Shown: positions 16,196 to 59,833 of the stretch, in pieces
Layout of the letters: each line of letters opens with the position of its first letter
How positions within the stretch are numbered: the stretch's first letter is position 1
Source of the DNA: a virus
DNA: 64,000 bases
Strand: one strand, 5' to 3'
IMG/VR virus record: IMGVR_UViG_3300037041_000399
Coordinates: 1 to 64,000 of that record
Notes under the pieces: model-generated
Database searches by the model: none
What the model was told of the DNA's origin: nothing
What the model saw: the letters and a program-made list of their open reading frames with translations, nothing else
Translations under genes and position numbers: made by a program

Positions 16196-19100
16196 ATGGC
16201 CGTTAATGCTAACACACAAATTTATGACAAGACGCTAGATCGTGCTGCAATGACACGCCTTTATGAAAGAAGAGTCTCCGGAAAAGTAGATTTAATCATT
16301 GATGGCCATGTCCTACGTCTTGACAAATTAATAAAAGCTTTTGAAAGTATGAACCCCTTTCGTAAAGAACTGGATAGAGAACTTACAAAGACTTACAAAA
16401 ATGTAAATAATACTGTACATAAAGACTTATTGTCTTTAACAACAGACCAGTTATCTTTTGCCTATCAAAAGGTGGAAGTAGCTATGGGTAATATTTGGCG
16501 TACAGAAAGACCTAAGCAAAGAGTTGCAGAAGAAATAGCACTAGCAAATCCACTTCACAAAAACCAAACAATGGAACAAGGTTGGAGTGGGATTGCTAAT
16601 AATGAAAAGATTAGACTAGAAGCTGTAATACGTAAAGGTATTGCTGACGGAAAGACAATGGACCAGATAGCTCTTGAAGTTCGTACTGGTAATGTACATA
16701 AGATTACAAGAACACAAGCTAAGGGTTTAGTTATTACTGCTGTTACTTCTGTGTGCTCTCAAGCTGATCATGCAATCTATAAAGCAAATGGTAAAGCCTT
16801 ACAAGGGTGGCAATATGTATCTGTTCTTGATGCTCGCACAACCCCTATCTGCGCTGGTCGCGATGGGCATATTTATGACATTTCTGATACTGTACATCTC
16901 CCTCCAGCTCATTGGCATTGTCGTTCAACAACTACTCCTGTGTTTAAATCATGGGAAGATATGTCAAAGCTTGAAGGAGTTGCACAGGTTCGTAAACGAA
17001 ACTTAGCAGGACTTACGGATGATCAGAAAGCCTTTTATGATGGCAATACACCATTAAGAGAAAGTTATAATGACTGGCTGCTAAGACAACCTCAAGACAT
17101 CCAATTAAGACACTTAGGTGATTATAAAAAAGTTAGTATGTTTAATAGTCAGCAGTTAACTTTAGACAAATTTACGAATGATGAAGGCAATACTATTGGT
17201 ATTACTGAACTGAGACGTATGACGGACTCTACGTATACTCTTCCAAATGATACACAAAAGTTTGCTAATGCTAAAGCTAAATTAGATGCGATGCAATTAC
17301 ATGCAACAACGCCTGAAGCCTTTTATCAAGATACAAAATTAGTAAATACATTAAGAGATTATTATTTATTACAAGCTGGCGAATTAGATGGTACTCTATC
17401 CCTCACAAACTATCGCGGTTCCCTCTTACATACCAAGAAGGCTACCAAATCACGAGTACTCAACAGCTTGCCAACAGAAGAGCAAACAATCTTCAATCCA
17501 GTTACAGGTCGTTACGAAGACGTCAGATTGTACCAACCAAACGTTGAGGTATTAAATAATAACCTAAGATTACTACGTGAAAGCCCTGTATTAAAGCAAG
17601 AAGATAAAGACTTCATTGAGAAGTTTATTGGCAGTCTTGATGAAAAGATGGGTGCTAATGAAAGAGCTGCTGTAGCAGATAATCTTCGTATTATATTCAC
17701 TAGGTTCCGTAATAACGGAGAGCAATGGGGTAACTTCAAGGCTGTAGTACAAGGTCAGATTAAGTTTGATGTAATGAATGTATCAGATTCTCTTGAAACA
17801 CAATTAAGAAGAGATACTGATGTACTTAAGAAATTAACGCAAGACAATTACATTGACCCTATACTAGGCCCTACTCAGCTACAAGATCTTCATGATAATT
17901 TTATCAACAATATTCGTGCTAGAAATAACTGGGAAGATAGTGTTGCTCCTAAGATTGCTAGAGAATTACGCAATGTATTTGATTACAAGATACCTATTAA
18001 ATTAAAAAGAATGCCTAATGGCAAAGAACGATTATCAGAAGCTGATTTAGATCAATTTTATTTACGATTTGCGCACAGATTAAGTATGGCAGATATGCCG
18101 GATAGAGATCAATTTGCAGTTGCATTAGGACGTGACTTATATAATATGTCAGGCTTAAATGGTAATCGCAAAGAATGGTATGATTTAGGGATGTCAATGT
18201 TAGAAGCAAAGAATGTTACTAAGTTCTTTGAAGTAGAAACATTTGGCGTTCAAAAGCGAAGAATGAAAAGCAGATTGAGCAACAGTCTGTTTGGCCCTTA
18301 TTATGACACTCTGTCATATAACATACGGGTTACTGATCCTCGTGTACAAGAGTATGCGCAGCTCACAAGGAAAGTGGAAGTCGGCCTACGTGTTGGCGTT
18401 ACATCTGAGAAGAACAAGTTGCTATTCCGCGAGGGTTATAAAACGTACTTTATTGACAGAGGTCTCCTAGGTTTAGAAGATACTCGTATTCCCATTACAT
18501 CTACAAACAGCTTTAGTGATTTTCCTGAACAATTTGTTGATAAGAACCTAGCTAATGCTTTAAATTGGGCATCAAAGTCTAAGTATAAAATTGACGAAGA
18601 TTTTTATGATTTTACAAAGAAATTATTGTACTTCGAAGATGATAGAGGCAACGCTAAGAAGTATAACGAATTGAATGAATATAAACACTATATTTCTTCT
18701 AGGGGAGATGCCTATGAAAGATTCAAATCGATGGACTGGTTACGGACACGAGGATATTCTTTTAGTAATCATGCTTTTGTTGACCATCGTGCTCGTATAT
18801 ATGATCGCGGACTCATTAGTCCTCAGTCAGGAGAGTCCTTCAGACCATTCCTTAATACCGAACAATCAAAAGTGTTGGGTGAGGCTGGATACAGAAACTT
18901 CAGAGACCAAATAGGTGCATTTATGGGCGGTCTTAATGATACTTTTGAAGGGCGATATAATTCATTATCCTTTACTGGTAGACAAAAGATTGCTGATAAG
19001 CTATGGCCAGATATGGTAGATATTGGCAACAAGATGCTACGTGGTAAGCCTGCTGATCTTCGTGCTATATTAGAATCAGAAATGGTACAATTAGTAGATG

Positions 19101-28153: not shown

Positions 28154-31100
28154 ATGTCAGGTATAGTCATCGAAGTCGAAGCAAAGGTATCCCAAGCAGA
28201 GACTTCATTAGAACGATTAAACGATGTAGTACGAAATATCACAGCAAGCCTTAAAGCTGTTGATAAAGGATTGGAAAATCTATCACTTAAGAAAGAAGTT
28301 CCATTAGACAAAACAGAGAAAGCTTTAAATAATTTATCACCTAAAATCGATAAGTTGCAAAGCAGCACTGATAAGTTATTTAAAGGTTCTTCTAATGTAG
28401 ATAATCGATATTCAAAGGAATTTGTTAATATTGGTGTATCTGCAGAAATGGCAGGTAAGCGAGTAGAAAAGGCTTTTAATGATATTACATTAAAACCTAA
28501 CGATGCTGCATTAAAAAGTTTTTCATTTGAAATTGATAGAACATCTAGAAAGATATCTAAACAAATGTCAGAAGGTATTTCTAAAAAAGATCTTAGAGAT
28601 ACTGAAAGTAGTCTATTAAACATAAATAAAAGTATTACAGGTATTTCAGGTAATATTACAAGTGCCGTTGGTTCTATTGGTACTGCAATTGCCGCTTTTG
28701 GCTCTATTGCTACCATTGGAATGTTTGTAAAATCACTATCAGATATTACGTCATCTTTTACTGAAATAGAATCTAAGATTGCAATGGTAACAGGGCGTAC
28801 TGTTGCATTCTCAGAAGCACAACAAGCACTGTTAAAAGTTGCTGCAGAGACACGTACTACCTATGGAGCTACTGCAGATGCCTTCTCAGGTGTTGGGCGT
28901 GCTATGAAAGACGTTGGGGCAACTAGTGAGCAACTGTTCAGAGTTACTAAGGTATTGCAGCAATCGCAGGCGTTGTCTGGCGGCTCGTCAGAGGGCTTTA
29001 AAGCGGCAATGATGCAGTTGAATCAAGGCCTTTCTTCTGGCGCACTACGGGGCGAAGAACTCAATTCTGTGCTAGAACAGGCACCTGCTATTGCAGACGC
29101 ACTTGCGCGGTCTTTACACGTTTCTGTAGGCGCATTAAAAGGAATTGCTGAACAAGGTAAACTAACAACTTCAGTAGTTTTCAGTTCATTGCTAAAGCAA
29201 GCCGATTATATTAATGATAAATTCAAAGCTATTAACCCAACGCTAGGCAATGCAATGGAAGCTGGCTTTGAAGGTGCTAAACGATTTGCCTTTGAATTAG
29301 ACAAAGGATTAGGTCTCTCTCAAGATCTTGCAAAAGCTGTTTCTAAACTAACATCCGGGTTAGGCACAAAAACCAGTGGCATTAGAGTCTTTGCAGCTGA
29401 CTTTGATGTACAATTAAAAGAAGCAATTATACGTGTTAAATCGTATATGCAGCCTTTGACACAAGTCGTTACAGCACTGGGGCAAGAATTTTATAGAGTA
29501 TTTTCTTCTTGGAAAATTCCAGAAGGTTCCCAAAAGCCTCTAGATGATCTGATACGTAAGTTTACAATATTTAAATTTGTACTTACGCATACAGACCCTG
29601 GAACAGATACTAAGATTTTATTTAGAAAAGTAGAAACTGCAATTGTAGACAGTGTAAAAACTATCAGTGATTTATTAGATAAGGGGATAAAACTTAGCGA
29701 TAAGTTTATTATGCCTATTATTGATAAGATTAAAGATTTGTATCCTAAAGCCAGAAAAGCGTTATTAACAACCCTAGATGGTCTCAGAAGTGTCATAAAA
29801 GAATCAATGTCAGTACTTGCTGACGGCTTTGAAATTGGTGCTGAATTTGTTAAACCTATTATTAGAGAGTTGACTAAGCTGCCAGATCAGCTAATACTAA
29901 TTTTTAATAAAGTAGCCAAGGCTTTAGGTAGTGCTGCTTCTGCTACCAGTTCGCTTGCTGATGGCGTTGCAGATTTATTAGATTCTGTTACCCTTAAAGT
30001 AGGTGATTTAGACGGTATTTACGAGTACTTAAATAGCTTTAAAGATAAAGTAATTACTATCTTCTTTAAAATATGGGATGCAGTTATTGGCCACTCATGG
30101 TGGACTGATACAATTGATAGTATTATAGATACTTCCAAGTCTCTTTGGGAAAAAGCTTCTCCTGGCCTTATACGCTTTAGAGATAGTATAATTGCGTTAT
30201 TTAAAACTATTGCTAGTACGGTTACTACAGCATTTAATGATGCTATGGTTAAGCTTAATATAGAACCTAAATCAGTCTCATTTAAAATACCAATAAGTAT
30301 AGATGATGCTAAGGTACAATTTGAAGGCGTGTATGACAGCTTTGTAAAAACGTTTGATAAATTTAAAGATGATTTCCCTTTACTATTCAAAGCAATAGCA
30401 GCAGGCGTTGGTGCGATTCTTGTAGGAATGTTCTTACCTTCTGGCAATTTTGTATTATTGCTTGAAGCAGCTTTAATTTCAGCTTCGATTCAAAGTGCTA
30501 CAATGTTTGCAGAAACAATTGGCAGAGACTTAGGGGACGCAAGCCTTTTAGCTGGTTTAGGTAATAACTTAGGTGCTGCAGCTGGAAAGCTCTTTGCATC
30601 ATTCCTTGCTAATATGCCACTACTTGTTAGCGCATTCCTTGGCTTTATTAGTGAATTTACAAAAGAATTCTTAAAGCAATTACCTATCATTGGAGTGGCA
30701 TTTAAAGCTCTCTTCGGAATAGCTGGTGCCTTTGGCATGGCAGGGCCTTTAGGTCTTGTAGGTGCTATATTCTTCGGCAGAGGTATATTAGGCATAATGG
30801 CAACATTTGGCTTTTATACTGAAGCGATAACGGGCTTCATGGCAAAAATGGCAATTCTTGGTAACTTCTTTGGAGGCGGTGGCGGGTTAATCTCTAGGTT
30901 ATTATTTGGAGCAGGTAGAGCTTGGCATTTTCTTCCTATATTAGGATTAATAGCATCTCTATCAGGTGCTTTTGATGCATTGTATAATGATTCTAGTCTG
31001 AGTGCTTTAATCATTAATGGCGGTTTAATCTATTTTGCAATCTTTGGTAAAGGCGGTTTAGCTGGATTTGCTAAAATAGGTATGTTAGTTCGTGCTAATA

Positions 31101-34100
31101 TTGTAGGCATACTATCAGAGTTTACTGCAACAGCAGGATTAGCATCTAGTATTGCAGCTGGCGGTGCCTTTGGTCCAATGTTAATGGCTGGTATTCGTAA
31201 TTTCAGAAACTTCTTTAGAGGTGTTTCTGCGATGTCTGCAATGTTTTTCTCTTCTTCATTGAGCAGTTGGGCACAATACTTTACCAGATGGATAGCAGTT
31301 ACAGGCTTTTCTGGCAATATACTTAGATTCTTTAGAACCTTTTATTTAAATATCTTTGGTCCAATTACTGCAGCCTCATATTCCTTTGCACCGTTAGCAC
31401 AATCTTTTGTAGCTGCAATTAGTGCTATGAAAGCAGCTGCTGTAAGCTTTATAATGACTGCAAGAACTGCAGGTATTGCGATGGGCGGCTGGCTTGCTGC
31501 ACTGACAAGAATGTTATTAGGTGGACCAGGGATTTTAATACTTGTTGGATTAATTGCTTCTTTATTTAGCAAATCAGCTGATGCTGCTGAATCCTTTAGA
31601 GAAGAAAGTAACAAAGGTTTCTTTGAAAACTTAACTGATAATATTGCTAATCTTGATATTATAGGCTATTTTAGAGGACTGAAAGATAAGCTTGATGCAA
31701 TTGATTTTGGAGGGATGCTTGGTGTAAACTTTAAAGTCTCTATATATGCTGCTCTAACAGCAGTCACTGCGGCTTTAATGCTGTTTAGTACAAATGTACG
31801 TAAAACACTTATGCTCTTGGCTGGCGACTTGTTAGTATTTTCAGGTAAAGCTTTATTCAGCATTGCAGCATTATTTAGTCCTGTAGAAGTTTTAGCAGCT
31901 GGCGCACTATTGCTCAAAGCAGGCTGGTGGGCTGGTGTAAACCTCAATAGAGGTTTAACAATGGGCTTTGCGCTTAAAGATACTATTATCTCAATTATTA
32001 TGAGACTTCAGGCAACAGCAGCTTTAGCTGGTGCAATGAGAACCTTGGGCATAACAATGGCTGTCGGATTGTTAGGAGCGTTTTCTGCAGAGGCTATTGG
32101 ATTTGCAGACTTCTCAGCAATGTCTGTGTTAGGCTTTACTGCAATTGCCGCATTTATTTATCCTATTTTAAACGGTTTAACGGTGATTCCTGCTGCTATT
32201 ACTGCAGCATTTACTGGCGGTACGATTATGCAAGCTATTGGTGTATTATCGGCTAGAATATTATTGATGTTTGCACCATTAGGCTTAGCTGCTGCAGGTG
32301 CCTTTGCAGGCGCATGGGCAGGTGGCCAGTTTGGTGATGACATGGCTATGATAGGTGGACTTGCTGGCGCTTTGTTAGCCTTTAAGTTTACTGAATCAAT
32401 TATGACAGGTATCACTGAGTTCTTGGCTGTTGGTGCAAGACTCATGACATTAGGTTGGGTAGGTTTAGCCTTAACAGCTGCTGGACTTATTTATGCATGG
32501 TTATTTGGTAGTGACAGTACTTCATTATCACAAGATTTAGATAGTATAATTGAAAAGACTCGTACGCTGTTTGGTATGAAACCTAATCCTGTTGATTTTA
32601 GAACTGGATTGCGTTTAGATGATTTACAAGCAGCTGCAACAATGGGTATTAAGATTGATTATAAAATTGATCCTATTAGTGCTGCATTAGCTTCTGACTC
32701 CTCCAAAGAAGCTGTAACAAAAGCCACAGAAGATTTAGCACAGGCTATTAGAGATGCAAAAGCAGATTGGGATATTTCAGGTTTAACTCAGGATCAAAGA
32801 GATCTATTACAGAAGAAAGTAAAAGCTACTGCAGCTCGTGTTGATGCCGCTTCTGCTTCTACGCCTTTTGTATTTAAAGACTTTGGAAAGAACTTGACCC
32901 AAGCTCAAAGATATCGTCCAGATACTCTTTGGGGGCAATTGCAAAGACAAGGTGCACAAGCAGCTTTAGATGCTGAGTTTGAAGTTAAATTAAAGCAATT
33001 GTCTATAGCAAGTAGAATGCCATGGAACCAGACATCAGCTGCTAGATTAGATCTTAAAAGCCAAAGAGATGCAGTTTCTCTTTCTAAAGATACTACTTAC
33101 AATGCTAACTATTCTCCATTAGATGCTGAAACAGCTAAGTTAGCGCAACTTACAAAAGGCTTTGATAATCTTGGCCCTGTTGGTCCTAAGATGATGGCGC
33201 ATCTCAAAGATACTGGTAGAGAGATTATAGCTCTAACTAAGCAAATAAATGAGAATAAGTATTGGTTCTGGGAGCACCCTAACGGTAAGATATGGGAAAA
33301 TGCTGCTCCAGATCCTAAGCTAATTGCACAAATGAAAATGCTTCGTGCAGAGTATAAATCAACTGCAGAAGATATTGTGCGTTATAGTACTCTCATGAAA
33401 GCTGCTCAATCTTTTGCAGGCAGAATAAGTTCTATTGCTAGCAAGTTTGATATGAAAGGTGTTGAAAGTAAATTAGACACTAATAAAATATTTGCTAATA
33501 GTGACACTGCTGTTAATCGAATGGAAAAGCTTGGTGAAGCTGCTGAAAGACTTTCTAAAAGCCTTGAGGGTGTATTTGATGTAAAAGCTAAGAATGATAT
33601 TATTCTTAATATTGAAGAAGTTGTTAAGCAGAAAGAAAGACTTAAAGAAGATTCTGTACAGTCTTACAAGTATGCATCTCCTGTAATACCTAAGATGGCA
33701 GAAGAATTAGGATTAGGTGCAGGCAAAGCAGCTGCAGGATTACCTGAAAATATATCAGGCCCTGTATTAGCACGTATGACTGAATTAAAAAGACAACGTG
33801 AAGACTTTTTAAATAAGCCAGTTAGACCTGTAAATCCTGATTTAGTGCCTCAAGACTTTGTAAAAGAAACTGCGCAAAATAAGCATGAAACAATGGTATA
33901 CCAAGGTGATATGCGCCTTTGGCAGACCCGTAAAAAGAACCAAGAAACTGTTATTAAAACACTTGAAGAAGAGTTTGCAAATAATAAACTAGGTTCTACG
34001 CAAGCTGCATTAATTCAGGCTAAAAGAGAAGCCACTAAGATCCAGATGGAGGAGCCTGTTAAGCCAGCATTAGCAATGCTAGATGCTAAAGCACAACAAG

Positions 34101-37100
34101 CTAAAATGGAAAAGCTTCGTATTGAATACAAACAGAAATTAGAAATCTATAAGAATGATAATTTTGAGTATTTTGATAAGTACATGAAGAATCTTGTTGA
34201 GTCTTTTGATCTTGGTGACGAGTTACGTAAAGAGCTTTGGAGCAATGTCAAAACAAAACCAGGACAAATGGCGGATGTTGCTAATAAGCTTAATATTGAT
34301 ATTGGCGATTTGTATAGTACATTTGGTGCTGATGTAGCTGCAGGCTTACTACAACAAGCTGATGATGTTGCTGCTGCTATTGATCGTGCTATGGCTACTC
34401 AACAGTACGATAAACTACCAGCCTTAAAGCAACGTAAGGCCGCATTGACAACTAGAATGGCAACCCCTGAGTTTAAATCTCGTGGTGCTATGGCAGAATC
34501 AATGGGACTTGATCAGAGTTTAATCCCTGGTATTAGCACAGACGTTTTAGATTCGTTAGAAGCTGGTTACAAAAAGATTAAAGAAATTGATACGTATCTT
34601 GAGATGAACAAGAATACTATTAGCGATGCCACTTATCAAGCTAAGATACAAGAGAAGTTAAATGAACAACTCTCAGGAAAGAAAGCTGCGTTAGATGCTA
34701 GCTTTGGAAGACCTTCTTTTGAACTTCAAGCACGTATAGGAACTAATCTTACGGGTGCTCAGTTATCATTAATCTCACAAACAGATGTAGATAACTTAAA
34801 AGCTGCTGAATTAAACTTAGCTAAAATTAAATTAGACTTAGATGGTTCAAATGCTAATGCAGATACTTTGACAGACTATTTCAAAGCACTAGCAGATGAA
34901 GCTGAAGCTCGTTATCAAGCATCTCGTAATGCTGCATCCAAAACAGGTGCAGGAATGATGCAATCACTAGCTGATGTTAATTTTAGTGGTGCTAGTAAAC
35001 TTAACTTGTTACCTCCTGCAATTGTACAAAATGTAATTAAGCTTAGTAACTATATTAAAGATCTTAGACATAATCTAGAACAACCAACCTCTCCTGAAGC
35101 TTTTATTGCAATTAATAAAGAAATTGCTAAAACAGAAGAGGCGTTAAGTTCTATCAGAGATCAGTATACTAGTCTCCAAGACAAAATTAGTTCTGTCAAT
35201 GAAGTGTTTGGCGTTAGCTTTAGTAATATTGATTTTGTATCGTTAGGCTCTTCTTTGACTAGCACTTTGATAACTGTTGCTCAAAGTCTTAAAACAGAAC
35301 TTGCAAAAGAAATGGAGAAAGGTTTCTTAAGCGTAAGAGCTGAGAGTATTATTAAGGTATTAGATAGCTTAACTACAACTGGTACTTACTTAAAATTCTT
35401 TGCTGACTTTAAGAAAAATGCTAGAGAAAGTTTAACAGATGGAATGAAATCTGCTTTTGATAAGATTAAATCAATTGCACCTAACTTTGGCTTTAGTCAA
35501 AATCAATTCCAAATGATGGATAAAGGTTCTCGTGACCAATATTCCAAACAAGCTTCTGACATAACTGCATTAACAGCTATTCAAGGGCTAAATGGTTTAA
35601 CACAGAATCAAACAGATATCATCAATCAAAAACAACCTGTTGATGAAATGATGAAGCAACTGATTGATTCGTTTGATACTAATCAGTTAAAACAGTATGA
35701 AAAGCTAACTTCATCTCCTGTAGATCTTCAATTAAAAGCTGCTGATATACAATTAGAAGCTGCTAAAATGAACCTGGAGGCGGTTAAAGGCAAGGCACCT
35801 GAAGTAACAACACCTTTCAAAGAAGCTTCTAAGCAAACTACAGAAAGAGCTTTAGCCACAGGCCCACGAAGTGGTGTAACTTCATTAGCTGAAATGGCTA
35901 AGGATATTCCTTGGTCAGCTAATGCGCCTAAGCCTAAATTTAGACCTGATGTAGAACGGTGGGATTCATTAATACAAGACGCAGTGAAAGAATTTCCACG
36001 TGTAACAGTAGAAATGGTTAAGGCCGTTGTTGAACATGAATCTCGTGGATTAAATATTAAGTCAGGCATTACTCCAAAACCAGGTTATAAAGAAACCTCA
36101 TTTGGATTAGGTCAGTTTAATGATGCTACTGCTAAAACATTTGGAGTTGATAAGACAGATCCTGCGTCTACAATAAGAGGTATTGCACAATATTTATCTC
36201 TAAATATGAAAACGTTTGGAAATACTCGTGATGCCTTTAGAGCATATGCCGTTGGGCCGACAGGTGCCAAACAAGGTTTAGGTCAAGATAAAGCTGATGA
36301 GTTTATGACTACATTAGCAACTGGACGTGCGCCTAAATCTGCACCTGTAACTACTTCTCCTGAGCTTATAAAGCCTACTGCTGAATCTGTTGCTAAATCT
36401 ATTGAAGTCGCTGTTTCAAAACAAGGGGAGCTTAGCAGAGCTTTCAATGTAGACCTCATGGCTAGGATTAAAGAAATAGGTAAACAGAAACCGTTTGAAG
36501 CATATCAATTGGATAAACTTCAAAATCAGATTAACCCAAATGTTAGTACTCCAGCAGAATTATTATCTACTCATGGAGCTAAACTTGGCACTGATATTGT
36601 CGGTCAGATGAATGAAACTCAGATATCTTTGGCTACATCTCTTAACGAAAAATTGATGCAAGTTCAGCAACAATTTAATGCAAATCCAAGTACAGCTTTG
36701 CAACAAAGTATTACTACATACTCAGAAATGTTAAAAGCATTTACTGAAGGTGTTACAGCGGATGCTGAAGAGCTTGGTATAGCTAAGATGGTTGCATTCT
36801 CTTCTGCCAATTCTACCAACATCAGTAAATTCTTAAGTAGATTTAGCGGTATCAGTGAAGAACTTGTCATGACAATGAATGAAGCTGATAAAGCTTTAGC
36901 AAAGAATATGACAATTATTCGTGAGGATCTAAAAGATAAGCTAGCAGCTGACGCTAAAGCTGGTAAATCAACTACTGCTACTGCACTTAAAATATTAGAT
37001 TTAAGCGATAATATTTCAGACCTAGGTAATAAGGCAATGGATGCAGCTAAAGAAATTAAAACAGCTGGTGAGTCTTTTGCTTCTGGATTTACATCTTCCT

Positions 37101-39634
37101 TTAAAGACGCTTTCAAAGGTTTAATGAATCAAGATAAAGCGGATGGTAAGTCTGTAATAGGTACATTTGGCAACAAACTCAAAACATCAATTAAAGACCA
37201 AGTACTAAACACTGTTGCTGATTCATTTACTAATGTACTTGAATTAGGTAAAGGCGGTAAACTTACAAAAGTATTACAAAATGTAGGTAAGAATTTATTT
37301 AGTACTATTGGTTCAGCTGGTAGCGGCATTAAGAAGATTCTTTCAGGCAATATGACTATGGAAGGATTTACGAGTGGTATTAGCGACTGGTGGAGTGGAA
37401 TTACTGGCGGTGATACCACAGATACCTCTAATATGTCACCTGAAGAAATCCAGTTAACAGCTGCTGAGAAGTTTTCTAAAGCTGTCGATAAGTTTGCAAA
37501 TGGTGGTGTAGGCGGTGGCTTAGGTGGTATTGCCAAAGCTGCAGCTGGTGGTGGATTCCTTAGTGGTTTAGGTGATACACTTATGAGTGCCTTGCCGTGG
37601 GTTGCAGGTGGCGCTGGTGTGCTAGGTTTAGGTGCTTTACTGTCAGGCAGTGGAAAAGGGAGTTGGAACGAAGGCACTAAAGGTCTTGGTGGTGATTTCT
37701 TCTCTTCATTTAATGGTGGTAAATCATCTAGTGGAAATCCTACAAGTTTCTTAAATCCTGTTACAGGTATATTTGAAACAATAAGAGAAGGCGGTTCATC
37801 TCTTCTTAGCGGAGTAGGTAAAGCTGCATCTGGTAATTGGAATGCAGATACCTTTGCAGGCATTCGAAGTGGAAACATGGATAAAGGCACTGGAGTGTTT
37901 GATAGTGTTACCAATGGGTTATCTAGCTTATTACCTGGCTCGCAAACAGGAGATATCTCTACGAAGTCTATAACAGCTCTCGGTCAATCTATGCAAAATA
38001 GTTTGCCTGATGCTAAAGTAGAGGGACTATGGGATATTTTATTATCACCGCTTATGTTCTTATTTAAATTACTAAAAGATGGCTTTTTAGGGATAGTAGG
38101 GATGTTTACAGGCGTAGGTCAAGGAGTAGGTACAAGCTCTGGTACTGGTGAAAGCTCTACAAGTCCTTCTGCAGGCAATACATCTAAATCACCATTTAGT
38201 GGTATGTTTGGATTAGCTGCTGGTGGTCAAGTTAAAGGACCAGGGACTCCTACTTCAGATTCTATACCTGCACTACTATCTAACGGAGAGTTTGTAGTAA
38301 ATGCTAAAGCTACTAAAGATCATAGGGATCTTCTAGAAAAGATTAATAGTGGCAAGGTAATTAAACGTTCACTAGGTGGCATGATTGGTATGGGCGCTAG
38401 TTTAGCCGGTACATTTATGAAAGGCAAAACTGGTAGTCTTATTGGCACATTAGGCTCTGGTATTAGTGGCATAATGGGTATGATCGATAAACAGCAAGCC
38501 GCAGCTGCTAGTGAAAAGTTACTTGCAGCAGCTACACACCTAGAATCAGCTGCTACAGCATTAGAAAGTTTTGCAGCTAAGGGTGGTGTAGGTGGTGGTC
38601 TCCAATCAGCTGTCCAAGGTGAAGGTCAAGGCGGAGGTGGCGGTGGTCTGCTGCGAGGCGGTATTAAATCATTAATGAGCCAAGGGTCTAGTGGTGGTAT
38701 CATGGATTCTATTCAAGGCTTCTTTAGTAATGGATTAAATGCTGAGCACGGTACAGATGCACTAGGTGGACAATCATTTGGTGTATTACAATCAGATGCC
38801 AACGCAAGTGTTGGAAGTTATGGTGTTCTTGCTGCTGATGCTAACTCTTCTATCAATGGTGCTGCAGCTGGTAACAGCTTTGGCGTAATGGCTTCTGACG
38901 CTAATGGCGGAGGAATGTTTGATGGCTTAACTAGTATGTTCAGTGAAGGCGGTTCGCTTAGCAATATGTTTGGTGGATTAACCGATGGCATTTCAGGTAT
39001 GTTCCAAGGCTTAGTAGGTGGCGAAGGCGGTGGTGGCATTATGAGCATGTTCCAAGGCTTAGTCGGCGGTGAAGGTGGTGGCGGTATTATGAGCATGTTC
39101 AGCGGCCTCATAGGTGGCGAAGGCGGTGGTGGTATCATGGGTATGTTTAGCGGCCTCTTTGGTGGTGGTGGTGCAGGTGGCGCTCTTGGCGGCATTGGAG
39201 ATATATTTGGCAGTCTTATGAGTATGTTACCATTTGGCTTTGCTGATGGTGGCAGTGTAAGAGGCCCAGGCTCTAGCACCTCTGATTCAATACCAGCTAT
39301 GTTATCTAATGGCGAATTTGTTGTTAACGCAGCATCTACTCGAGAACATAGAGGATTATTAGAACATCTAAATAGCGGTAAGCCTCTGGCTAAACACTAC
39401 CTAGGCGGTTTACACTTAGCTGATGGCGGAATAGCTACTGCAGCTGCGCCTATAATGACCACACCTACTGCTAGTTCTGCCAAGCCGTTACGTAGCAATA
39501 AAGACTCTACAGTAGTAAATTTAAACATAACAGGCGATATATCTCGTCAAACTCGCGCGGAAGTTTACAAGCTAATCCCTAATATAACACAGGGCGTAAA
39601 CACGCATAATAAAGACAGCAACTATAAAGGATAA
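28154..39634 (+). CDS. Tape measure protein (3826 aa) with a lytic transglycosylase-like domain
   Basis: Tape-measure motif QLNQGLSSGALRGEELNSVLEQAP; long hydrophobic middle; SLT-like AVVEHES..FGLGQF..AY (about 35950-36310); twice GPGT/S.TSDSIPA.LSNGEFVVNA. Confidence 0.9.
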   Translation: MSGIVIEVEAKVSQAETSLERLNDVVRNITASLKAVDKGLENLSLKKEVPLDKTEKALNNLSPKIDKLQSSTDKLFKGSSNVDNRYSKEFVNIGVSAEMAGKRVEKAFNDITLKPNDAALKSFSFEIDRTSRKISKQMSEGISKKDLRDTESSLLNINKSITGISGNITSAVGSIGTAIAAFGSIATIGMFVKSLSDITSSFTEIESKIAMVTGRTVAFSEAQQALLKVAAETRTTYGATADAFSGVGRAMKDVGATSEQLFRVTKVLQQSQALSGGSSEGFKAAMMQLNQGLSSGALRGEELNSVLEQAPAIADALARSLHVSVGALKGIAEQGKLTTSVVFSSLLKQADYINDKFKAINPTLGNAMEAGFEGAKRFAFELDKGLGLSQDLAKAVSKLTSGLGTKTSGIRVFAADFDVQLKEAIIRVKSYMQPLTQVVTALGQEFYRVFSSWKIPEGSQKPLDDLIRKFTIFKFVLTHTDPGTDTKILFRKVETAIVDSVKTISDLLDKGIKLSDKFIMPIIDKIKDLYPKARKALLTTLDGLRSVIKESMSVLADGFEIGAEFVKPIIRELTKLPDQLILIFNKVAKALGSAASATSSLADGVADLLDSVTLKVGDLDGIYEYLNSFKDKVITIFFKIWDAVIGHSWWTDTIDSIIDTSKSLWEKASPGLIRFRDSIIALFKTIASTVTTAFNDAMVKLNIEPKSVSFKIPISIDDAKVQFEGVYDSFVKTFDKFKDDFPLLFKAIAAGVGAILVGMFLPSGNFVLLLEAALISASIQSATMFAETIGRDLGDASLLAGLGNNLGAAAGKLFASFLANMPLLVSAFLGFISEFTKEFLKQLPIIGVAFKALFGIAGAFGMAGPLGLVGAIFFGRGILGIMATFGFYTEAITGFMAKMAILGNFFGGGGGLISRLLFGAGRAWHFLPILGLIASLSGAFDALYNDSSLSALIINGGLIYFAIFGKGGLAGFAKIGMLVRANIVGILSEFTATAGLASSIAAGGAFGPMLMAGIRNFRNFFRGVSAMSAMFFSSSLSSWAQYFTRWIAVTGFSGNILRFFRTFYLNIFGPITAASYSFAPLAQSFVAAISAMKAAAVSFIMTARTAGIAMGGWLAALTRMLLGGPGILILVGLIASLFSKSADAAESFREESNKGFFENLTDNIANLDIIGYFRGLKDKLDAIDFGGMLGVNFKVSIYAALTAVTAALMLFSTNVRKTLMLLAGDLLVFSGKALFSIAALFSPVEVLAAGALLLKAGWWAGVNLNRGLTMGFALKDTIISIIMRLQATAALAGAMRTLGITMAVGLLGAFSAEAIGFADFSAMSVLGFTAIAAFIYPILNGLTVIPAAITAAFTGGTIMQAIGVLSARILLMFAPLGLAAAGAFAGAWAGGQFGDDMAMIGGLAGALLAFKFTESIMTGITEFLAVGARLMTLGWVGLALTAAGLIYAWLFGSDSTSLSQDLDSIIEKTRTLFGMKPNPVDFRTGLRLDDLQAAATMGIKIDYKIDPISAALASDSSKEAVTKATEDLAQAIRDAKADWDISGLTQDQRDLLQKKVKATAARVDAASASTPFVFKDFGKNLTQAQRYRPDTLWGQLQRQGAQAALDAEFEVKLKQLSIASRMPWNQTSAARLDLKSQRDAVSLSKDTTYNANYSPLDAETAKLAQLTKGFDNLGPVGPKMMAHLKDTGREIIALTKQINENKYWFWEHPNGKIWENAAPDPKLIAQMKMLRAEYKSTAEDIVRYSTLMKAAQSFAGRISSIASKFDMKGVESKLDTNKIFANSDTAVNRMEKLGEAAERLSKSLEGVFDVKAKNDIILNIEEVVKQKERLKEDSVQSYKYASPVIPKMAEELGLGAGKAAAGLPENISGPVLARMTELKRQREDFLNKPVRPVNPDLVPQDFVKETAQNKHETMVYQGDMRLWQTRKKNQETVIKTLEEEFANNKLGSTQAALIQAKREATKIQMEEPVKPALAMLDAKAQQAKMEKLRIEYKQKLEIYKNDNFEYFDKYMKNLVESFDLGDELRKELWSNVKTKPGQMADVANKLNIDIGDLYSTFGADVAAGLLQQADDVAAAIDRAMATQQYDKLPALKQRKAALTTRMATPEFKSRGAMAESMGLDQSLIPGISTDVLDSLEAGYKKIKEIDTYLEMNKNTISDATYQAKIQEKLNEQLSGKKAALDASFGRPSFELQARIGTNLTGAQLSLISQTDVDNLKAAELNLAKIKLDLDGSNANADTLTDYFKALADEAEARYQASRNAASKTGAGMMQSLADVNFSGASKLNLLPPAIVQNVIKLSNYIKDLRHNLEQPTSPEAFIAINKEIAKTEEALSSIRDQYTSLQDKISSVNEVFGVSFSNIDFVSLGSSLTSTLITVAQSLKTELAKEMEKGFLSVRAESIIKVLDSLTTTGTYLKFFADFKKNARESLTDGMKSAFDKIKSIAPNFGFSQNQFQMMDKGSRDQYSKQASDITALTAIQGLNGLTQNQTDIINQKQPVDEMMKQLIDSFDTNQLKQYEKLTSSPVDLQLKAADIQLEAAKMNLEAVKGKAPEVTTPFKEASKQTTERALATGPRSGVTSLAEMAKDIPWSANAPKPKFRPDVERWDSLIQDAVKEFPRVTVEMVKAVVEHESRGLNIKSGITPKPGYKETSFGLGQFNDATAKTFGVDKTDPASTIRGIAQYLSLNMKTFGNTRDAFRAYAVGPTGAKQGLGQDKADEFMTTLATGRAPKSAPVTTSPELIKPTAESVAKSIEVAVSKQGELSRAFNVDLMARIKEIGKQKPFEAYQLDKLQNQINPNVSTPAELLSTHGAKLGTDIVGQMNETQISLATSLNEKLMQVQQQFNANPSTALQQSITTYSEMLKAFTEGVTADAEELGIAKMVAFSSANSTNISKFLSRFSGISEELVMTMNEADKALAKNMTIIREDLKDKLAADAKAGKSTTATALKILDLSDNISDLGNKAMDAAKEIKTAGESFASGFTSSFKDAFKGLMNQDKADGKSVIGTFGNKLKTSIKDQVLNTVADSFTNVLELGKGGKLTKVLQNVGKNLFSTIGSAGSGIKKILSGNMTMEGFTSGISDWWSGITGGDTTDTSNMSPEEIQLTAAEKFSKAVDKFANGGVGGGLGGIAKAAAGGGFLSGLGDTLMSALPWVAGGAGVLGLGALLSGSGKGSWNEGTKGLGGDFFSSFNGGKSSSGNPTSFLNPVTGIFETIREGGSSLLSGVGKAASGNWNADTFAGIRSGNMDKGTGVFDSVTNGLSSLLPGSQTGDISTKSITALGQSMQNSLPDAKVEGLWDILLSPLMFLFKLLKDGFLGIVGMFTGVGQGVGTSSGTGESSTSPSAGNTSKSPFSGMFGLAAGGQVKGPGTPTSDSIPALLSNGEFVVNAKATKDHRDLLEKINSGKVIKRSLGGMIGMGASLAGTFMKGKTGSLIGTLGSGISGIMGMIDKQQAAAASEKLLAAATHLESAATALESFAAKGGVGGGLQSAVQGEGQGGGGGGLLRGGIKSLMSQGSSGGIMDSIQGFFSNGLNAEHGTDALGGQSFGVLQSDANASVGSYGVLAADANSSINGAAAGNSFGVMASDANGGGMFDGLTSMFSEGGSLSNMFGGLTDGISGMFQGLVGGEGGGGIMSMFQGLVGGEGGGGIMSMFSGLIGGEGGGGIMGMFSGLFGGGGAGGALGGIGDIFGSLMSMLPFGFADGGSVRGPGSSTSDSIPAMLSNGEFVVNAASTREHRGLLEHLNSGKPLAKHYLGGLHLADGGIATAAAPIMTTPTASSAKPLRSNKDSTVVNLNITGDISRQTRAEVYKLIPNITQGVNTHNKDSNYKG
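38999..39190 (+). repeat. 48-bp coding tandem repeat (about 4 copies) in the tape measure C-terminus
   Basis: MFQGLVGGEGGGGIMS / MFQGLVGGEGGGGIMS / MFSGLIGGEGGGGIMG / MFSGLFGGGG. Confidence 0.85.
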
Positions 39635-52475: not shown

Positions 52476-52510
52476 TTCTCCGTTCCCCCTATATTATTAA
52501 TTCTAATAAT

Positions 52511-52545
52511 GCGGAAATAATAGTATCTTATATGAAGTACTATAA
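52511..52545 (+). promoter_or_regulatory. Class II motif, copy 1 (putative early promoter)
   Basis: GCGGAAA-TAATA-GTATCTTATATGAAGTAC-TATAA, 20 nt before an ATG. Confidence 0.65.
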
Positions 52546-53617: not shown

Positions 53618-53621
53618 AAAC

Positions 53622-53656
53622 GCGGAAAATGGGGTATCTTATATGAAGTACAATAA
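53622..53656 (+). promoter_or_regulatory. Class II motif, copy 2
   Basis: GCGGAAA-ATGGG-GTATCTTATATGAAGTAC-AATAA, intergenic. Confidence 0.65.
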
Positions 53657-53691
53657 GGTACCTCAATCAATTAATTATTTGGAGTATTATC

Positions 53692-54126
53692 ATGAACCTA
53701 TTGAACACAACAACAGCAACTACAGTAAACAACGTTAGTATCCGTTTCGCAGACAATGGCACACGTATTGAAATGCGTGGTGAGTTTGCAGCCATCCGCG
53801 AAGTAATCGCAAGCAACCCAGGAGTATGCATCGACATGGACATGTATCAAGAAGGCCTCGACGAAGTAGTCGGAGGTATCTTCAATCGTGATGCACAACG
53901 CATCATCCTTGAGTTGACCTCAATGGGTGTTGAGCTTGAGAGAGACGGCTACAACACTTTCCGTGAAACAGGCCTAATGAATAACGGCTTTGTTCGCATT
54001 CGTGTATCAGAAGTAAATCTTCAGTTGCTAGCTGGAGAATCAATAGCTCGCCAAACAGCTGTAGCGGATGCAATCGGCGCATCAGTTACAGGCTCAATGC
54101 GTGGCTATGTAGTCTCAATGTGGTAA
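53692..54126 (+). CDS. Early hypothetical protein
   Basis: 144 aa, TTTGGAG RBS. Confidence 0.65.
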   Translation: MNLLNTTTATTVNNVSIRFADNGTRIEMRGEFAAIREVIASNPGVCIDMDMYQEGLDEVVGGIFNRDAQRIILELTSMGVELERDGYNTFRETGLMNNGFVRIRVSEVNLQLLAGESIARQTAVADAIGASVTGSMRGYVVSMW

Positions 54127-54169
54127 ATGTATAAGATAGTGCCAACAACTAACTTTAAAGGTGAACAAC

Positions 54170-54316
54170 ATGAATCCAGTACAAGCAGCACAAGCAGCAG
54201 TAGACGCGAAATTATTAGCAATGAAGATCGAACATGATGCAAGAATTAAAGCATTAGATGAAGATAAAGAATTCGCTAAAATGCTAGCAGAAATGCAAGC
54301 TAAGCTTAAATGCTAA
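54170..54316 (+). CDS. 48-aa coiled-coil early protein (not in ORF track)
   Basis: AAAGGTG RBS; MNPVQAAQAAVDAKLLAMKIEHDARIKALDEDKEFAKMLAEMQAKLKC. Confidence 0.55.
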   Translation: MNPVQAAQAAVDAKLLAMKIEHDARIKALDEDKEFAKMLAEMQAKLKC

Positions 54317-54320
54317 TAAA

Positions 54321-54348
54321 AGACCTGAGTAGGTCTCTAAACTGCTTA
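54321..54348 (+). ncRNA. Small H-type pseudoknot motif, copy 1
   Basis: AGAC-CTGAGTAG-GTCT-CTAAAC-TGCTTA; loop TGAGTA pairs with TGCTTA; same geometry at 59406. Confidence 0.55.
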
Positions 54349-54403
54349 GTGTCTAAGGGATGTGTATCCCATACTGATGATGGTTCAAAAGAACCGAAAC
54401 ACT
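54348..54403 (+). ncRNA. Type III hammerhead ribozyme
   Basis: Stem III AGTGT/ACACT; GUC cleavage triplet (after C54353); stem I TA(A)GGGAT-GTGT-ATCCC(A)TA; core CTGATGA; stem II GGTTC-AAAA-GAACC; GAAA. Confidence 0.85.
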
Positions 54404-54423
54404 TAATTATTTGGAGTATTACT

Positions 54424-54600
54424 ATGTTTAACAAAATCAAAAATTATTTAAATGGCAACAGAAAAGAAATCGATGAAGCCAGAGAATTCCTTATCACATG
54501 GCAAGAAGGCCAAAAAGCTGCTGATGAACTAGTAGCTAAGTTTGAAGCAAAAGCCTTAGTAATGAAACTTGAAAGATTAGCGAGAGAACGTCATGCTTAA
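54424..54600 (+). CDS. Early hypothetical protein
   Basis: ATG at 54424 after TTTGGAG (MFNKIKNYL...). Confidence 0.6.
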   Translation: MFNKIKNYLNGNRKEIDEAREFLITWQEGQKAADELVAKFEAKALVMKLERLARERHA

Positions 54601-55540: not shown

Positions 55541-55595
55541 CCCTCTCTGGCTCCTTCGGGAGCTGGGGAGGGCTTTCTCTCTTATTTTTTTTTTT
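55541..55595 (+). terminator. Strong hairpin/terminator ending the first early block
   Basis: CCCTCTCTGGCTCC-TTCG-GGAGCTGGGGAGGG followed by a pyrimidine/T11 tract. Confidence 0.75.
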
Positions 55596-55792: not shown

Positions 55793-58012
55793 ATGCGGAA
55801 TAAGTTATTAAAGTCTTTACGTACAAGAATTGCTGTAGAAATTGCACCACAATCTCCAATTAAGTTTTTAAAGAAGCTTGACATAGAAGAGCATCTAGAT
55901 GAGATTATTGCAAACACTTACTTGTACACAAGACCTAAAAAGGGTTCTGACAAGGAAATTATAATGTCAGAAGTAATTTGTATTATTGGGCACAATATGC
56001 GAAAGGGCGAAAAGAAAGATTCAGCTACAGCAGCCAGATGTGGTGCTTTTATTTTATACTCATTTGCAGAGCTAGGCCTCACAGAAATAGTAATGACTAG
56101 TGCAGCTAATGGCCACGGCACATACGTAGTTAAAGTCGTAGATGAAAAGAGTATGCAGGAATTATGGGAAACAGTATCTAGACAGGGTGGTAAGGGTAAA
56201 TTACCATCAGCAACACCATATGCAGATTGGACAAGTTTTAGGCATGATACAGGTGCCGTTTTAGTTAAGACACAATCAAAAGCTGTAGCAGAAATCTTAA
56301 CACCTGAAACACATCCAATTGTATTTGAGTCTATTAATAAAAGTCAAAGAGTAGGTTGGCTGATTAACAAAGAAGTCTATAATATTGCTAAGTGGGCTTT
56401 AAGTAACAAAACAGAAGCATTCAGTGATATTTGGGAACAGCATAATCCACAAGCACGTACAACTAAATTAAGAGAGACTAAAGCTATTCTTAGTATTGCA
56501 GACAAGTTTACTGATATTCCTTTTTACCATTTGTACTATCTAGACTTTAGAGGTCGTAAATATCCAACTACAGCGTATCTACATGAGCAGTCTTCTGACA
56601 TTGCTAAGGGCTTATTAATGCGTCAAGACAAGAAGGTTATTGGACAAGATGGTTTCTTTTGGCTATGCGTATCAATTGCAAGTAACTGGGCAGGTAACTC
56701 AGGTAGAGAAGATGGTGCTAAGACAGATAAAATACCTCTAAAAGACAGATATCAGTGGGTACTAGACAATGAAGAAATTCTGACAGCGTATGCACTTTCG
56801 CCTAAGCTAAATCAAGGCTGGATGGAAGCTGATAAGCCTTGGCAATTCTTAGCTGCTTGTATTGAGCTTAAGAACGCGTTAAGTATGGGTTCTAGTTATC
56901 TTCAGTATGAGTCTCATGTAGAGTGTTTCATTGACGGTTCTACTAATGGCTCACAGCATTTAAGTGCTCTCACTAGAGATGAAATTACAGCACCATATGT
57001 TAATTTAGTACCATTAGAAATGCCTGGAGATTTATATGCATACGTGGCTAACCATGTGTGGAGTAAAATCTCGACTATTGTAAATGCAATGTCGCCAAGC
57101 TTAGTATTAGAGTGTGAAGAATTTATTGATGGATTAATAGCGTTAAAAAGAAAGATTGTTGCGGCTGAACCCAAATCAGAGTTACGTAGTCAATTAGTGT
57201 CACAAATAAGAGCATACAAAACAAAATGGACAGATGTCGGTGAAAAGGCTTCTCCAGTATTTTGGCATAGAATTAAAGATAGTAAGCAACGTAGAAAGAT
57301 TGTTAAAAGGAATGTAATGACATTACCGTATGGCGGTTCAGGGTATGGCTTGTCAGAACAACAAATTGATGATTCTAAAAAGCATGGTATAGAATTGTTA
57401 ATGAATATGGAACACAAATGGGCATCATGGATGGGACGATTAGTATTTGAAGATGCTAAAGAATCTTTACAAAGACCTATGATGCTATTAGAAGTATTTG
57501 AGAAAGCTGGAGCAGCTGCTGAGAAGAAAGGTAAATTCTTAGAGTGGACAGTGCCTGTTACAAATTTCCCTGTAGTGCAAAATTATACAGAAGGTCGTAC
57601 TAAAAAGATACATATTCAATGGGGTCCGAGAATTGGCATTAGGAGTGAAACCACCGGATACTTTGGAAATGATATACAATTACATATATGTTTTATTGAG
57701 GATCAAGTACCCTCAAAAGGAAAGCAGTCCCAAGGAGCAGCACCAAATGTAATCCATTCATTGGATGCAGCGCACTTAGCGATGACAACAGCTAAATGCG
57801 ATTTTCCTATTACGACTATACATGATTCCTATGGCTGCCTGCTTGCAGATATGCCTAAGCTATATCAATGTGTGCGTGATACTTTTGTCGAGCTTTACCA
57901 AGAGAATCCTTTGTTTCCCCTGATCGATAAGATAAATGGCGATTTAAGCTATTTAGATATGGGTGAGCTGGATGTTAATTTAATTCTAGAAAGTGAATAT
58001 GCTTTCGCATAG
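55793..58012 (+). CDS. T7-family single-subunit DNA-directed RNA polymerase (739 aa)
   Basis: DFRGRKY, DKPWQFLA, DGSTNGSQHL (A), RKIVKRNVMTLPYG (B), PNVIHSLDAAHL, IHDSYG (C). Confidence 0.95.
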   Translation: MRNKLLKSLRTRIAVEIAPQSPIKFLKKLDIEEHLDEIIANTYLYTRPKKGSDKEIIMSEVICIIGHNMRKGEKKDSATAARCGAFILYSFAELGLTEIVMTSAANGHGTYVVKVVDEKSMQELWETVSRQGGKGKLPSATPYADWTSFRHDTGAVLVKTQSKAVAEILTPETHPIVFESINKSQRVGWLINKEVYNIAKWALSNKTEAFSDIWEQHNPQARTTKLRETKAILSIADKFTDIPFYHLYYLDFRGRKYPTTAYLHEQSSDIAKGLLMRQDKKVIGQDGFFWLCVSIASNWAGNSGREDGAKTDKIPLKDRYQWVLDNEEILTAYALSPKLNQGWMEADKPWQFLAACIELKNALSMGSSYLQYESHVECFIDGSTNGSQHLSALTRDEITAPYVNLVPLEMPGDLYAYVANHVWSKISTIVNAMSPSLVLECEEFIDGLIALKRKIVAAEPKSELRSQLVSQIRAYKTKWTDVGEKASPVFWHRIKDSKQRRKIVKRNVMTLPYGGSGYGLSEQQIDDSKKHGIELLMNMEHKWASWMGRLVFEDAKESLQRPMMLLEVFEKAGAAAEKKGKFLEWTVPVTNFPVVQNYTEGRTKKIHIQWGPRIGIRSETTGYFGNDIQLHICFIEDQVPSKGKQSQGAAPNVIHSLDAAHLAMTTAKCDFPITTIHDSYGCLLADMPKLYQCVRDTFVELYQENPLFPLIDKINGDLSYLDMGELDVNLILESEYAFA

Positions 58013-59405: not shown

Positions 59406-59433
59406 AAGCCTGGGTATGCTTCTTAACTGCCCA
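59406..59433 (+). ncRNA. Small H-type pseudoknot motif, copy 2
   Basis: AAGC-CTGGGTAT-GCTT-CTTAAC-TGCCCA; loop TGGGTA pairs with TGCCCA. Confidence 0.55.
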
Positions 59434-59455: not shown

Positions 59456-59833
59456 ATGTTAGGAATGACTCCAACACTATGTCTCGTTGCTGCAATGTAC
59501 TTCGAGGCTAGAAACCAAACGTCCGATGCCATGTTAGGTGTCGGTCAAGTATTAATGGAGAATACAGAGAATGGCAAAACTATGTATGACACATTGAAAA
59601 AGAAGGGGCTGTTCTCTTGGGCTAGGAAAGGAGTTAAAATACCTAAACCTAAGAGTCCGGCGGACGTTGAAGTTTTTGAGCATCAGCAGAAGCTGGCGCG
59701 AAAAATGCTTTTCAAACAACTTAGAACACCTTTATTACGAGGTAAGTATAGGTATTTTAATAATTGGCAACTAGGCAGGCGATTTAAGACTAATGTACCG
59801 TTAGTTAGAATTGATGACTTAGTTTTCTATTGA
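59456..59833 (+). CDS. Cell-wall hydrolase, SleB/Hydrolase_2-like
   Basis: CLVAAMYFEARNQ..GVGQV..FSW..IDDLVFY. Confidence 0.7.
   Translation: MLGMTPTLCLVAAMYFEARNQTSDAMLGVGQVLMENTENGKTMYDTLKKKGLFSWARKGVKIPKPKSPADVEVFEHQQKLARKMLFKQLRTPLLRGKYRYFNNWQLGRRFKTNVPLVRIDDLVFY

Follow-up and report, generated by a model that had tools for sequence, protein, structure and literature searches.

Does the message of a block of small phage genes carry an RNA element that cuts it, and what would become of the two ends that such a cut creates? The locus lies in a 64,000-nt stretch of DNA (the window) that belongs to an uncultured virus record of 78,236 bp, which looks complete, has direct terminal repeats, and carries all of its genes on one strand. 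The genome encodes a terminase, a portal, a major head protein, and a J-like tail protein, and it is siphovirus-like. An initial annotation had described a type III hammerhead ribozyme inside an operon of this genome. That hammerheads flank small genes in phages has been known since 2011; the window ribozyme is an already known kind of element, and another phage hammerhead would not by itself be surprising. The arrangement here is a clean one, with a single ribozyme in a defined operon of a phage that has its own RNA polymerases and with a pseudoknot placed exactly at what would become the new 3' end.

Architecture and position of the hammerhead

Reading of the sequence showed that each element listed in the initial annotation is present at positions 54348-54403 of the plus strand. 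The 5' strand of stem III, AGUGU (54348-54352), is followed by C17 (54353), after which the cut is predicted (54353|54354), and by stem I with its GUGU loop (UAAGGGAU / AUCCCAUA; 54354-54373). The core CUGAUGA (54374-54380), an extra U between A9 and G10.1 (54381), stem II with its AAAA loop (GGUUC-AAAA-GAACC; 54382-54395), and GAA (54396-54398) come next, and the 3' strand of stem III, ACACU (54399-54403), pairs back to AGUGU. Stem I comprises eight positions, including one A.A mismatch or bulge pair, and the closing pair of stem II, G10.1-C11.1, is formed by G54382 and C54395. The required core, C3-U4-G5-A6-N7-G8-A9 ... G12-A13-A14, is interrupted solely by the inserted U54381. The A15.1-U16.1 pair is formed by A54399 and U54352, and position 17 (54353) is a C, that is, a base other than G. 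Stems I and II are closed by loops and stem III is open, as in the type III topology.

The MFE structure of the isolated 56-mer was exactly the expected three-way junction, with a modest fold z-score of -1.8. In a context of 121 nt, the nested MFE fold instead paired the 5' strand of stem III with the loop of an upstream hairpin; since this alternative pairing is an extension of the second stem of the upstream pseudoknot described below, the order of folding may matter.

The hammerhead lies within a 107-nt non-coding spacer, on the gene strand, between ORFs of 48 aa (54170..54316, plus strand), whose stop codon is 4 nt before the pseudoknot, and 58 aa (54424..54600, plus strand; MFNKIKNY...). 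These are small unannotated genes upstream of an RNA polymerase gene, in agreement with the proposed location between two small genes of an operon, and a PHROG search of the small proteins flanking the ribozyme returned no family. A homologue of the 58-aa protein in contig L076 likewise comes after a pseudoknot-hammerhead cassette. The ribosome-binding site was said to follow the ribozyme directly, and it does: the Shine-Dalgarno sequence GGAG of the 58-aa ORF (54413..54416, plus strand) begins within 9 nt of the hammerhead. The spacer sequence contains no U-run after either hammerhead hairpin. An ORF at 54310-54600 that reads through the ribozyme was considered and rejected, as homologues contain in-frame stops and a strong Shine-Dalgarno sequence precedes the ATG at 54424. 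In 6 of the 12 homologous elements, that of L076 among them, an in-frame stop sits between the ribozyme and the downstream start, and the hammerhead element is therefore not coding.

Detection by covariance models

The Rfam model RF00008 (Hammerhead_3) aligned to the window copy over all 54 model positions with a score of 27.7 bits. The E-value was 5.8e-4 in a scan of 351 nt against all 4227 Rfam families and 3.1e-5 in a single-family search of the whole 78,236-bp genome, in which it was the only match. The score falls below the curated gathering threshold of RF00008 (48.5 bits), which explains why a default Rfam scan of the whole window at the gathering threshold gave no matches. A scan of 5 kb at E <= 1 was likewise empty, its speed filters having discarded the hammerhead; the hammerhead surfaced only in the short-window scan and in the single-family genome search. 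The comparison with Rfam hammerhead models that the initial annotation had suggested was thus divided in its outcome, since alignment over the full model and the genome-wide E-value favour the assignment whereas the score does not reach the curated cut-off. The copies in related phages scored 25-36 bits, all below 48.5 bits, so Rfam under-scores the whole subfamily and not the window copy alone, although the score of the window copy is among the lowest of its hammerhead family here.

A covariance model (R1) was built from four relatives' copies only, with the window sequence excluded. It recovered the window copy with 38.1 bits and an E-value of 1.7e-6 in 678 kb searched. A strict structural descriptor gave one real match in the 64-kb window and none in 60 dinucleotide shuffles, and a loose version of it gave 0.17 matches per shuffle.

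Homologues in related phages and covariation of the stems

Relatives were fetched by means of the neighbouring 739-aa RNA polymerase, and hammerheads were then sought in them with the structural descriptor. The hammerheads found were on the gene strand, 1.0-1.8 kb upstream of the RNA polymerase gene. Contigs whose polymerase is 98% identical to that of the window carry an identical ribozyme; at 85% polymerase identity, stem II differs, the core is CUGACGA, and the extra U is missing; and a contig at 54% polymerase identity carries two hammerheads with entirely different stems I and II. Model R1 found further copies in contigs gathered through the neighbouring pseudoknot motif.

Twelve distinct hammerhead sequences from related phage contigs were aligned (alignment A4). 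In this alignment, 97.1% of the cells were paired, and 10 of the 15 pairs showed changes on both sides. The observed covariation score was reached by none of 500 column shuffles, and pairing fell to 29-47% when the partners were slid by 1-3 columns. Double changes were found at six of seven pairs in stem I and three of four in stem II; in stem III, all cells pair, and only one of the four pairs has changed on both sides. Because the homologues were partly collected with a descriptor or a model that rewards pairing, these pair counts lean towards structure. The invariant core beside the variable stems is independent of that bias: CUGAYGA, GAAAC, and the cleavage site UGU(A/C) are the same in all 12 homologues. 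Taken with the architecture and the Rfam alignment, the covariation among the 12 homologues bears out the assignment to type III. Judged from sequence, MFE fold, RF00008, model R1, and covariation (alignments A3 and A4), the window element is a genuine type III hammerhead.

The setting of the element is conserved as well: each of the 12 homologues follows a stop codon, has the orientation of the genes, and is separated by 2-13 nt from the Shine-Dalgarno sequence downstream. A search of the relatives L008-L018 and L020-L064 with model R1 gave no hammerhead, indicating that the hammerhead is sporadic in the clade. Three contigs (L007, L019, and L086) carry two hammerheads about 450-540 nt apart, which flank a single small gene. 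In hammerheads, a tertiary contact between loops or bulges of stems I and II gives fast cleavage at physiological Mg2+. As regards these loops, loop I is GUGU in 8 of the 12 sequences, loop II is A-rich (AAAA, GAAA, AUAA, or UAAA), and the loops of one L019 hammerhead (L019b) contain the complementary triplets CUG and CAG. Among cultured phage genomes, a megablast search with 3 kb gave no match, and blastn with the spacer gave only matches of 24-28 nt that were too weak to use (E 0.3-4); for all but one record, the match fell on the pseudoknot motif and came from an unrelated phage.

The extra U after A9

The initial annotation had stated that an extra nucleotide after A9 is tolerated in natural variants. 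Contigs L080, L083, and L087 carry a second hammerhead, whose stems I, II, and III are all unrelated to those of the window copy and which has the same extra U. Moreover, the ribozyme is identical between the window and contig L002 at 56 of 56 positions, against 82-88% identity in the flanking ORFs and 58-59% in ORFs farther away; at 85% identity, a match at all 56 positions would arise by chance about once in 10,000 cases. This recurrence with other stems and the complete conservation argue that the extra base is tolerated in nature, a view that the sequence comparisons support. De la Pena and Flores are reported to have described, in 2001, an active viroid hammerhead, that of CChMVd (+), in which one more nucleotide stands between A9 and G10.1 (cited in PMC6155905).

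The extra U is absent from the closest homologue that shares stems I and II (L086:11675-11731), and position 54381 is deleted in a low-depth contig of DNA run X3; natural variants with and without the extra core U therefore exist, and these two cases indicate that the insertion is recent in the window lineage. As the insertion lies in the catalytic core and a homologue with the same stems lacks it, the window copy could be slower than a canonical hammerhead. A stronger form of this idea is that the extra U has made the hammerhead slow or dead, and that the element persists as a folded spacer of two hairpins in a 5' UTR or cuts only conditionally or under regulation. The position of the insertion within a conserved core, the L086 homologue and the X3 contig, and a score among the lowest of the family with Rfam all point that way, and slow natural core variants in phages, for which conditional activity has been suggested, are known (Perreault et al., PMC3088659). 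We nevertheless regard this as unlikely, because the form with the extra U recurs with unrelated stems in three further contigs, because the 56 nt are 100% conserved beside genes that are 82-88% conserved, and because all other core positions are intact. The viroid hammerhead, reportedly active with an extra base at the same position, also speaks against it.

The transcription unit that contains the hammerhead

A class-2 promoter-like element, CGCGGAAAA-n3-GGTATCTTATATGA, is located at 53621..53646 on the plus strand, about 700 nt upstream of the hammerhead, and a variant second copy is at about 52510-52536 (plus strand). The element is conserved in relatives, and its promoter function is a prediction; within the window it occurs only in the small-gene block, and nearly all of the relatives L002-L020 have one or two copies upstream of the RNA polymerase gene. 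In the sequencing runs, numerous short contigs whose flanks differ stack up at the 53621 motif, among them an RNA-run bin at depth 149. The transcript with the hammerhead may start at the 53621 element. A 19-nt leader, TTAATTATTTGGAGTATTA, occurs on the plus strand at 53671-53689 and 54403-54421, before two different start codons; its repetition after the promoter-like element and after the hammerhead suggests a reused translation-initiation module.

At the other end of the block, the transcription unit of the small genes likely ends at a strong intrinsic-terminator-like hairpin of 14 bp with a T-run (55541..55590, plus strand), which precedes the RNA polymerase gene at 55793. Since promoter-like motifs and the terminator-like hairpin bound the small-gene block, the transcription unit likely starts at about 53645 (or 52535), ends at about 55590, and includes the hammerhead. 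As for the "early" timing of this unit, we infer it only from gene order and from the distribution of the promoter-like motifs. For a relative, contigs assembled from RNA runs span 54126-54297 and begin again at about 54414, with none crossing the pseudoknot and hammerhead; since RNA ends are not visible in contigs, the gap carries no information on cleavage or transcription.

A second kind of motif, the 16-nt repeat CCCGTTAAATTAACCC, occurs in intergenic positions at 245, 345, 22181, 22266, 52460, and 60765 (plus strand). It sits before structural and replication genes, is kept in relatives with RNA polymerases down to about 52% identity, and may serve one of the two RNA polymerases of the phage as a promoter.

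A conserved pseudoknot upstream of the ribozyme

Sequence and covariation revealed a 28-nt pseudoknot-type motif 5' of the hammerhead, at 54321..54348 on the plus strand. Its parts are, in order, AGACC, UGAGUA, GGUCU, CUAAAC, and UGCUUA: P1 is formed by AGACC and GGUCU, P2 by the loop UGAGUA with UGCUUA, and CUAAAC is the linker. The last base of the pseudoknot is also the first base of stem III, so that the motif ends 5 nt before the cut. The window copy thus conforms to the pattern of the cassette, in which the 28-nt motif has a NUAAAN linker, begins right behind a stop codon, and ends 5-7 nt ahead of the cut. Of the 12 hammerheads, 10 are preceded by the pseudoknot, which ends 5-7 nt before the cut, and two are without it.

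The exact stem pattern of the pseudoknot was found in 25 IMG/VR contigs of very different sizes, always just after a stop codon; what follows it in those contigs is a hammerhead, a terminator-like hairpin or U-run, or directly a ribosome-binding site. Loop position 8 and downstream position 26, both left free in the search pattern, pair in every case, with A and U in about 14 distinct sequences and G and C in about 7. A second copy in the window, without a hammerhead (59406-59433, plus strand), has two compensatory changes in P1 (AAGC/GCUU), and its P2 is UGGGUA/UGCCCA. This copy comes after TAAGTAATAA and lies 23 nt before the start of the ORF 59456-59833. A scan of 351 nt against all Rfam families gave no match for the pseudoknot motif, and a literature search with the string of its stem-loop retrieved no paper containing it. 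The pseudoknot is apparently undescribed and is the more novel part of the arrangement; it is probably one half of a functional unit with the hammerhead.

Conservation of the hairpin stem could also be read in another way, namely that the upstream hairpin is a promoter at the DNA level, like those of the N4 virion RNA polymerase, from which RNA synthesis would begin a few bases ahead of the ribozyme, and that the hammerhead, instead of cutting within a polycistronic message, trims a short 5' leader and turns a 5'-triphosphate into a 5'-OH. The strong conservation of the stem sequence fits this, as does the fusion of a head protein with an RNA polymerase in this genome (see below), which may be a virion polymerase. 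However, the loop covaries with a downstream segment, as would be expected of an RNA pseudoknot, and the stem changes in the second copy compensate each other. A stop codon always precedes the motif, which in other phages stands directly before terminator-like U-runs or ribosome-binding sites; two of the 12 hammerheads lack the hairpin; and a much better promoter candidate, which recurs in relatives, is located 700 nt upstream. A DNA-level promoter at this hairpin is therefore very improbable.

Proposed processing of the operon RNA

We consider it likely that the hammerhead self-cleaves and processes the operon RNA. The hammerhead would be transcribed within a multi-gene message over the small genes upstream of the T7-like RNA polymerase gene. 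Stems I, II, and III would fold on the nascent RNA, and the cut after C54353 would take place by internal transesterification, as expected from the class of ribozyme. The upstream product would then carry a 2',3'-cyclic phosphate end only 5 nt (GUGUC) beyond the pseudoknot, an end on which neither 3' exonucleases nor polyadenylation would act well. The first nucleotide of the downstream product would bear a 5'-OH, right where the stem I hairpin begins; this product would have its own Shine-Dalgarno sequence 9 nt after the ribozyme and would be a poor target of 5'-end-dependent decay. As a presumed consequence, the polycistronic RNA would be split into units with structurally capped ends, and, for the 58-aa gene and later genes, stability and translation would no longer be coupled to the preceding genes. 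That the pseudoknot and the 5' hairpin are protective is inferred, and so is the extent of the transcript. RNAfold predictions of Shine-Dalgarno accessibility before and after the cut (two folds) showed no clear difference. If the pair of pseudoknot and ribozyme does protect both new ends, this would account for the placement of hammerheads between small genes in phages, and the pair would be a natural two-sided insulator for synthetic biology.

On a broader and more tentative reading, which we hold to be possible rather than probable, the two parts would form a portable cassette for mRNA "punctuation", in which a 28-nt pseudoknot after the stop codon, a general 3'-end module of phages, caps the 3' end against exonucleases while the stem I hairpin and the 5'-OH cap the downstream message. 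The pseudoknot might also stack on the short stem III and so aid folding of the ribozyme. It could be paired with any end-generating device, given that it stands directly before terminator U-runs in other phages, and the cassette would serve transcripts of phage-encoded single-subunit RNA polymerases. The combination of P2 with a U-run resembles an intrinsic terminator in other phages, suggesting that the pseudoknot may mark RNA 3' ends generally. In L071, L075, L081 (three copies), and L089, a run of 7-8 T was observed within 2-3 nt of the pseudoknot.

Two further accounts of the locus are both highly improbable. Excision is one: the ribozyme would mark one end of a unit that is cut out, and a ligase such as RtcB would join this unit into a gene-length RNA, either circular or spliced. 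The ends of hammerhead products, 5'-OH and 2',3'-cyclic phosphate, are ligatable, and L007, L019, and L086 do have two hammerheads about 450-540 nt apart around one gene; the window genome, however, has only one hammerhead, and circular or spliced products of clustered phage hammerheads were sought but not found (Perreault et al., PMC3088659). The other account, a chance match or a pair of hairpins acting as a terminator or attenuator without catalytic meaning, would suit the score under the Rfam threshold and the modest z-score of the 56-mer (-1.8) but is contradicted by the E-values of the Rfam genome search and of model R1, by the invariant 7+4-nt core with covarying stems in 12 homologues, by the lack of any match in 60 shuffles, and by the lack of a U-run after either hairpin.

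Comparison with known systems

In T7, early mRNA is cut between cistrons by host RNase III, leaving hairpin-bearing ends, as reported by Dunn and Studier. The proposed processing in the window is alike in its intercistronic cuts in a polycistronic message, although the analogy is one of function only. A host protein acts on long duplexes in T7 and leaves 5'-phosphate and 3'-OH ends, whereas an autocatalytic RNA would act in the window, with the 5'-OH and 2',3'-cyclic-phosphate ends expected from its class. The CChMVd (+) hammerhead and the window copy are both natural type III ribozymes in which one base is inserted at the same place in the core; the extra base is reportedly A in the viroid and is U in the window, and the viroid ribozyme serves replication and is not an mRNA element. 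Synthetic ribozyme insulators of the RiboJ type were, as reported by Lou et al. in 2012, engineered from the sTRSV hammerhead. They too place a hammerhead just upstream of a ribosome-binding site, so that the cut would leave a defined, structured 5' end independent of the upstream sequence; the window arrangement differs in being natural and in its pairing with an upstream pseudoknot.

The nearest parallels are other phage and prophage hammerheads. In prophage operons, hammerheads flank single genes, and in vitro cleavage was seen for those that were assayed (Perreault et al. 2011, PMC3088659). Clusters of them have been proposed to cut long transcripts into gene-length mRNAs (Perreault et al., PMC3088659), and the haloviruses HF1/HF2 have a hammerhead 13 nt before the start of an early gene, with a mapped 5' end within 3 nt of the cut (PMC3088659). 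The processing proposed for the window agrees with this halovirus case. The biological role of many phage hammerheads is listed as an open question (PMC6155905, PMC6765202). The window element agrees with this group (Perreault; Rfam clan CL00010) in its core and three-way junction, in its intergenic position beside small non-conserved ORFs, and in its proposed role of dividing a long transcript into gene-length mRNAs; as in HF1/HF2, a start codon is within about 20 nt. It differs in its sub-threshold Rfam score, its extra U, the conserved pseudoknot on its 5' side, and its host, an uncultured siphovirus-like genome with two T7-family RNA polymerases.

RNA polymerases of the host phage

The first of these RNA polymerases, a 739-aa protein of the T7 family encoded at 55793-58012, has the hammerhead in the small-gene block just upstream of its gene; its closest relative from a cultured phage is that of roseophage DSS3_VP1 (33% identity). 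The second is a domain of a 1771-aa head-morphogenesis (MuF/gp7-like) protein (16196-21511, plus strand), in which residues 861-1092 match PHROG 414. This fusion is a candidate for a virion-packaged RNA polymerase beside the separate 739-aa enzyme. We considered and rejected an N4-like phage with an N4-type hairpin promoter, since the 3826-aa ORF at 28154-39634 (plus strand) encodes a tape measure protein, unusually long for a 78-kb genome, and the hairpin behaves as an RNA pseudoknot. Among the relatives, L019 has a group I intron within its RNA polymerase gene (7500-7734; 63.7 bits with Rfam RF00028, which exceeds the cut-off), and the RNA polymerase match of L020 is likewise split at about 7638-8017.
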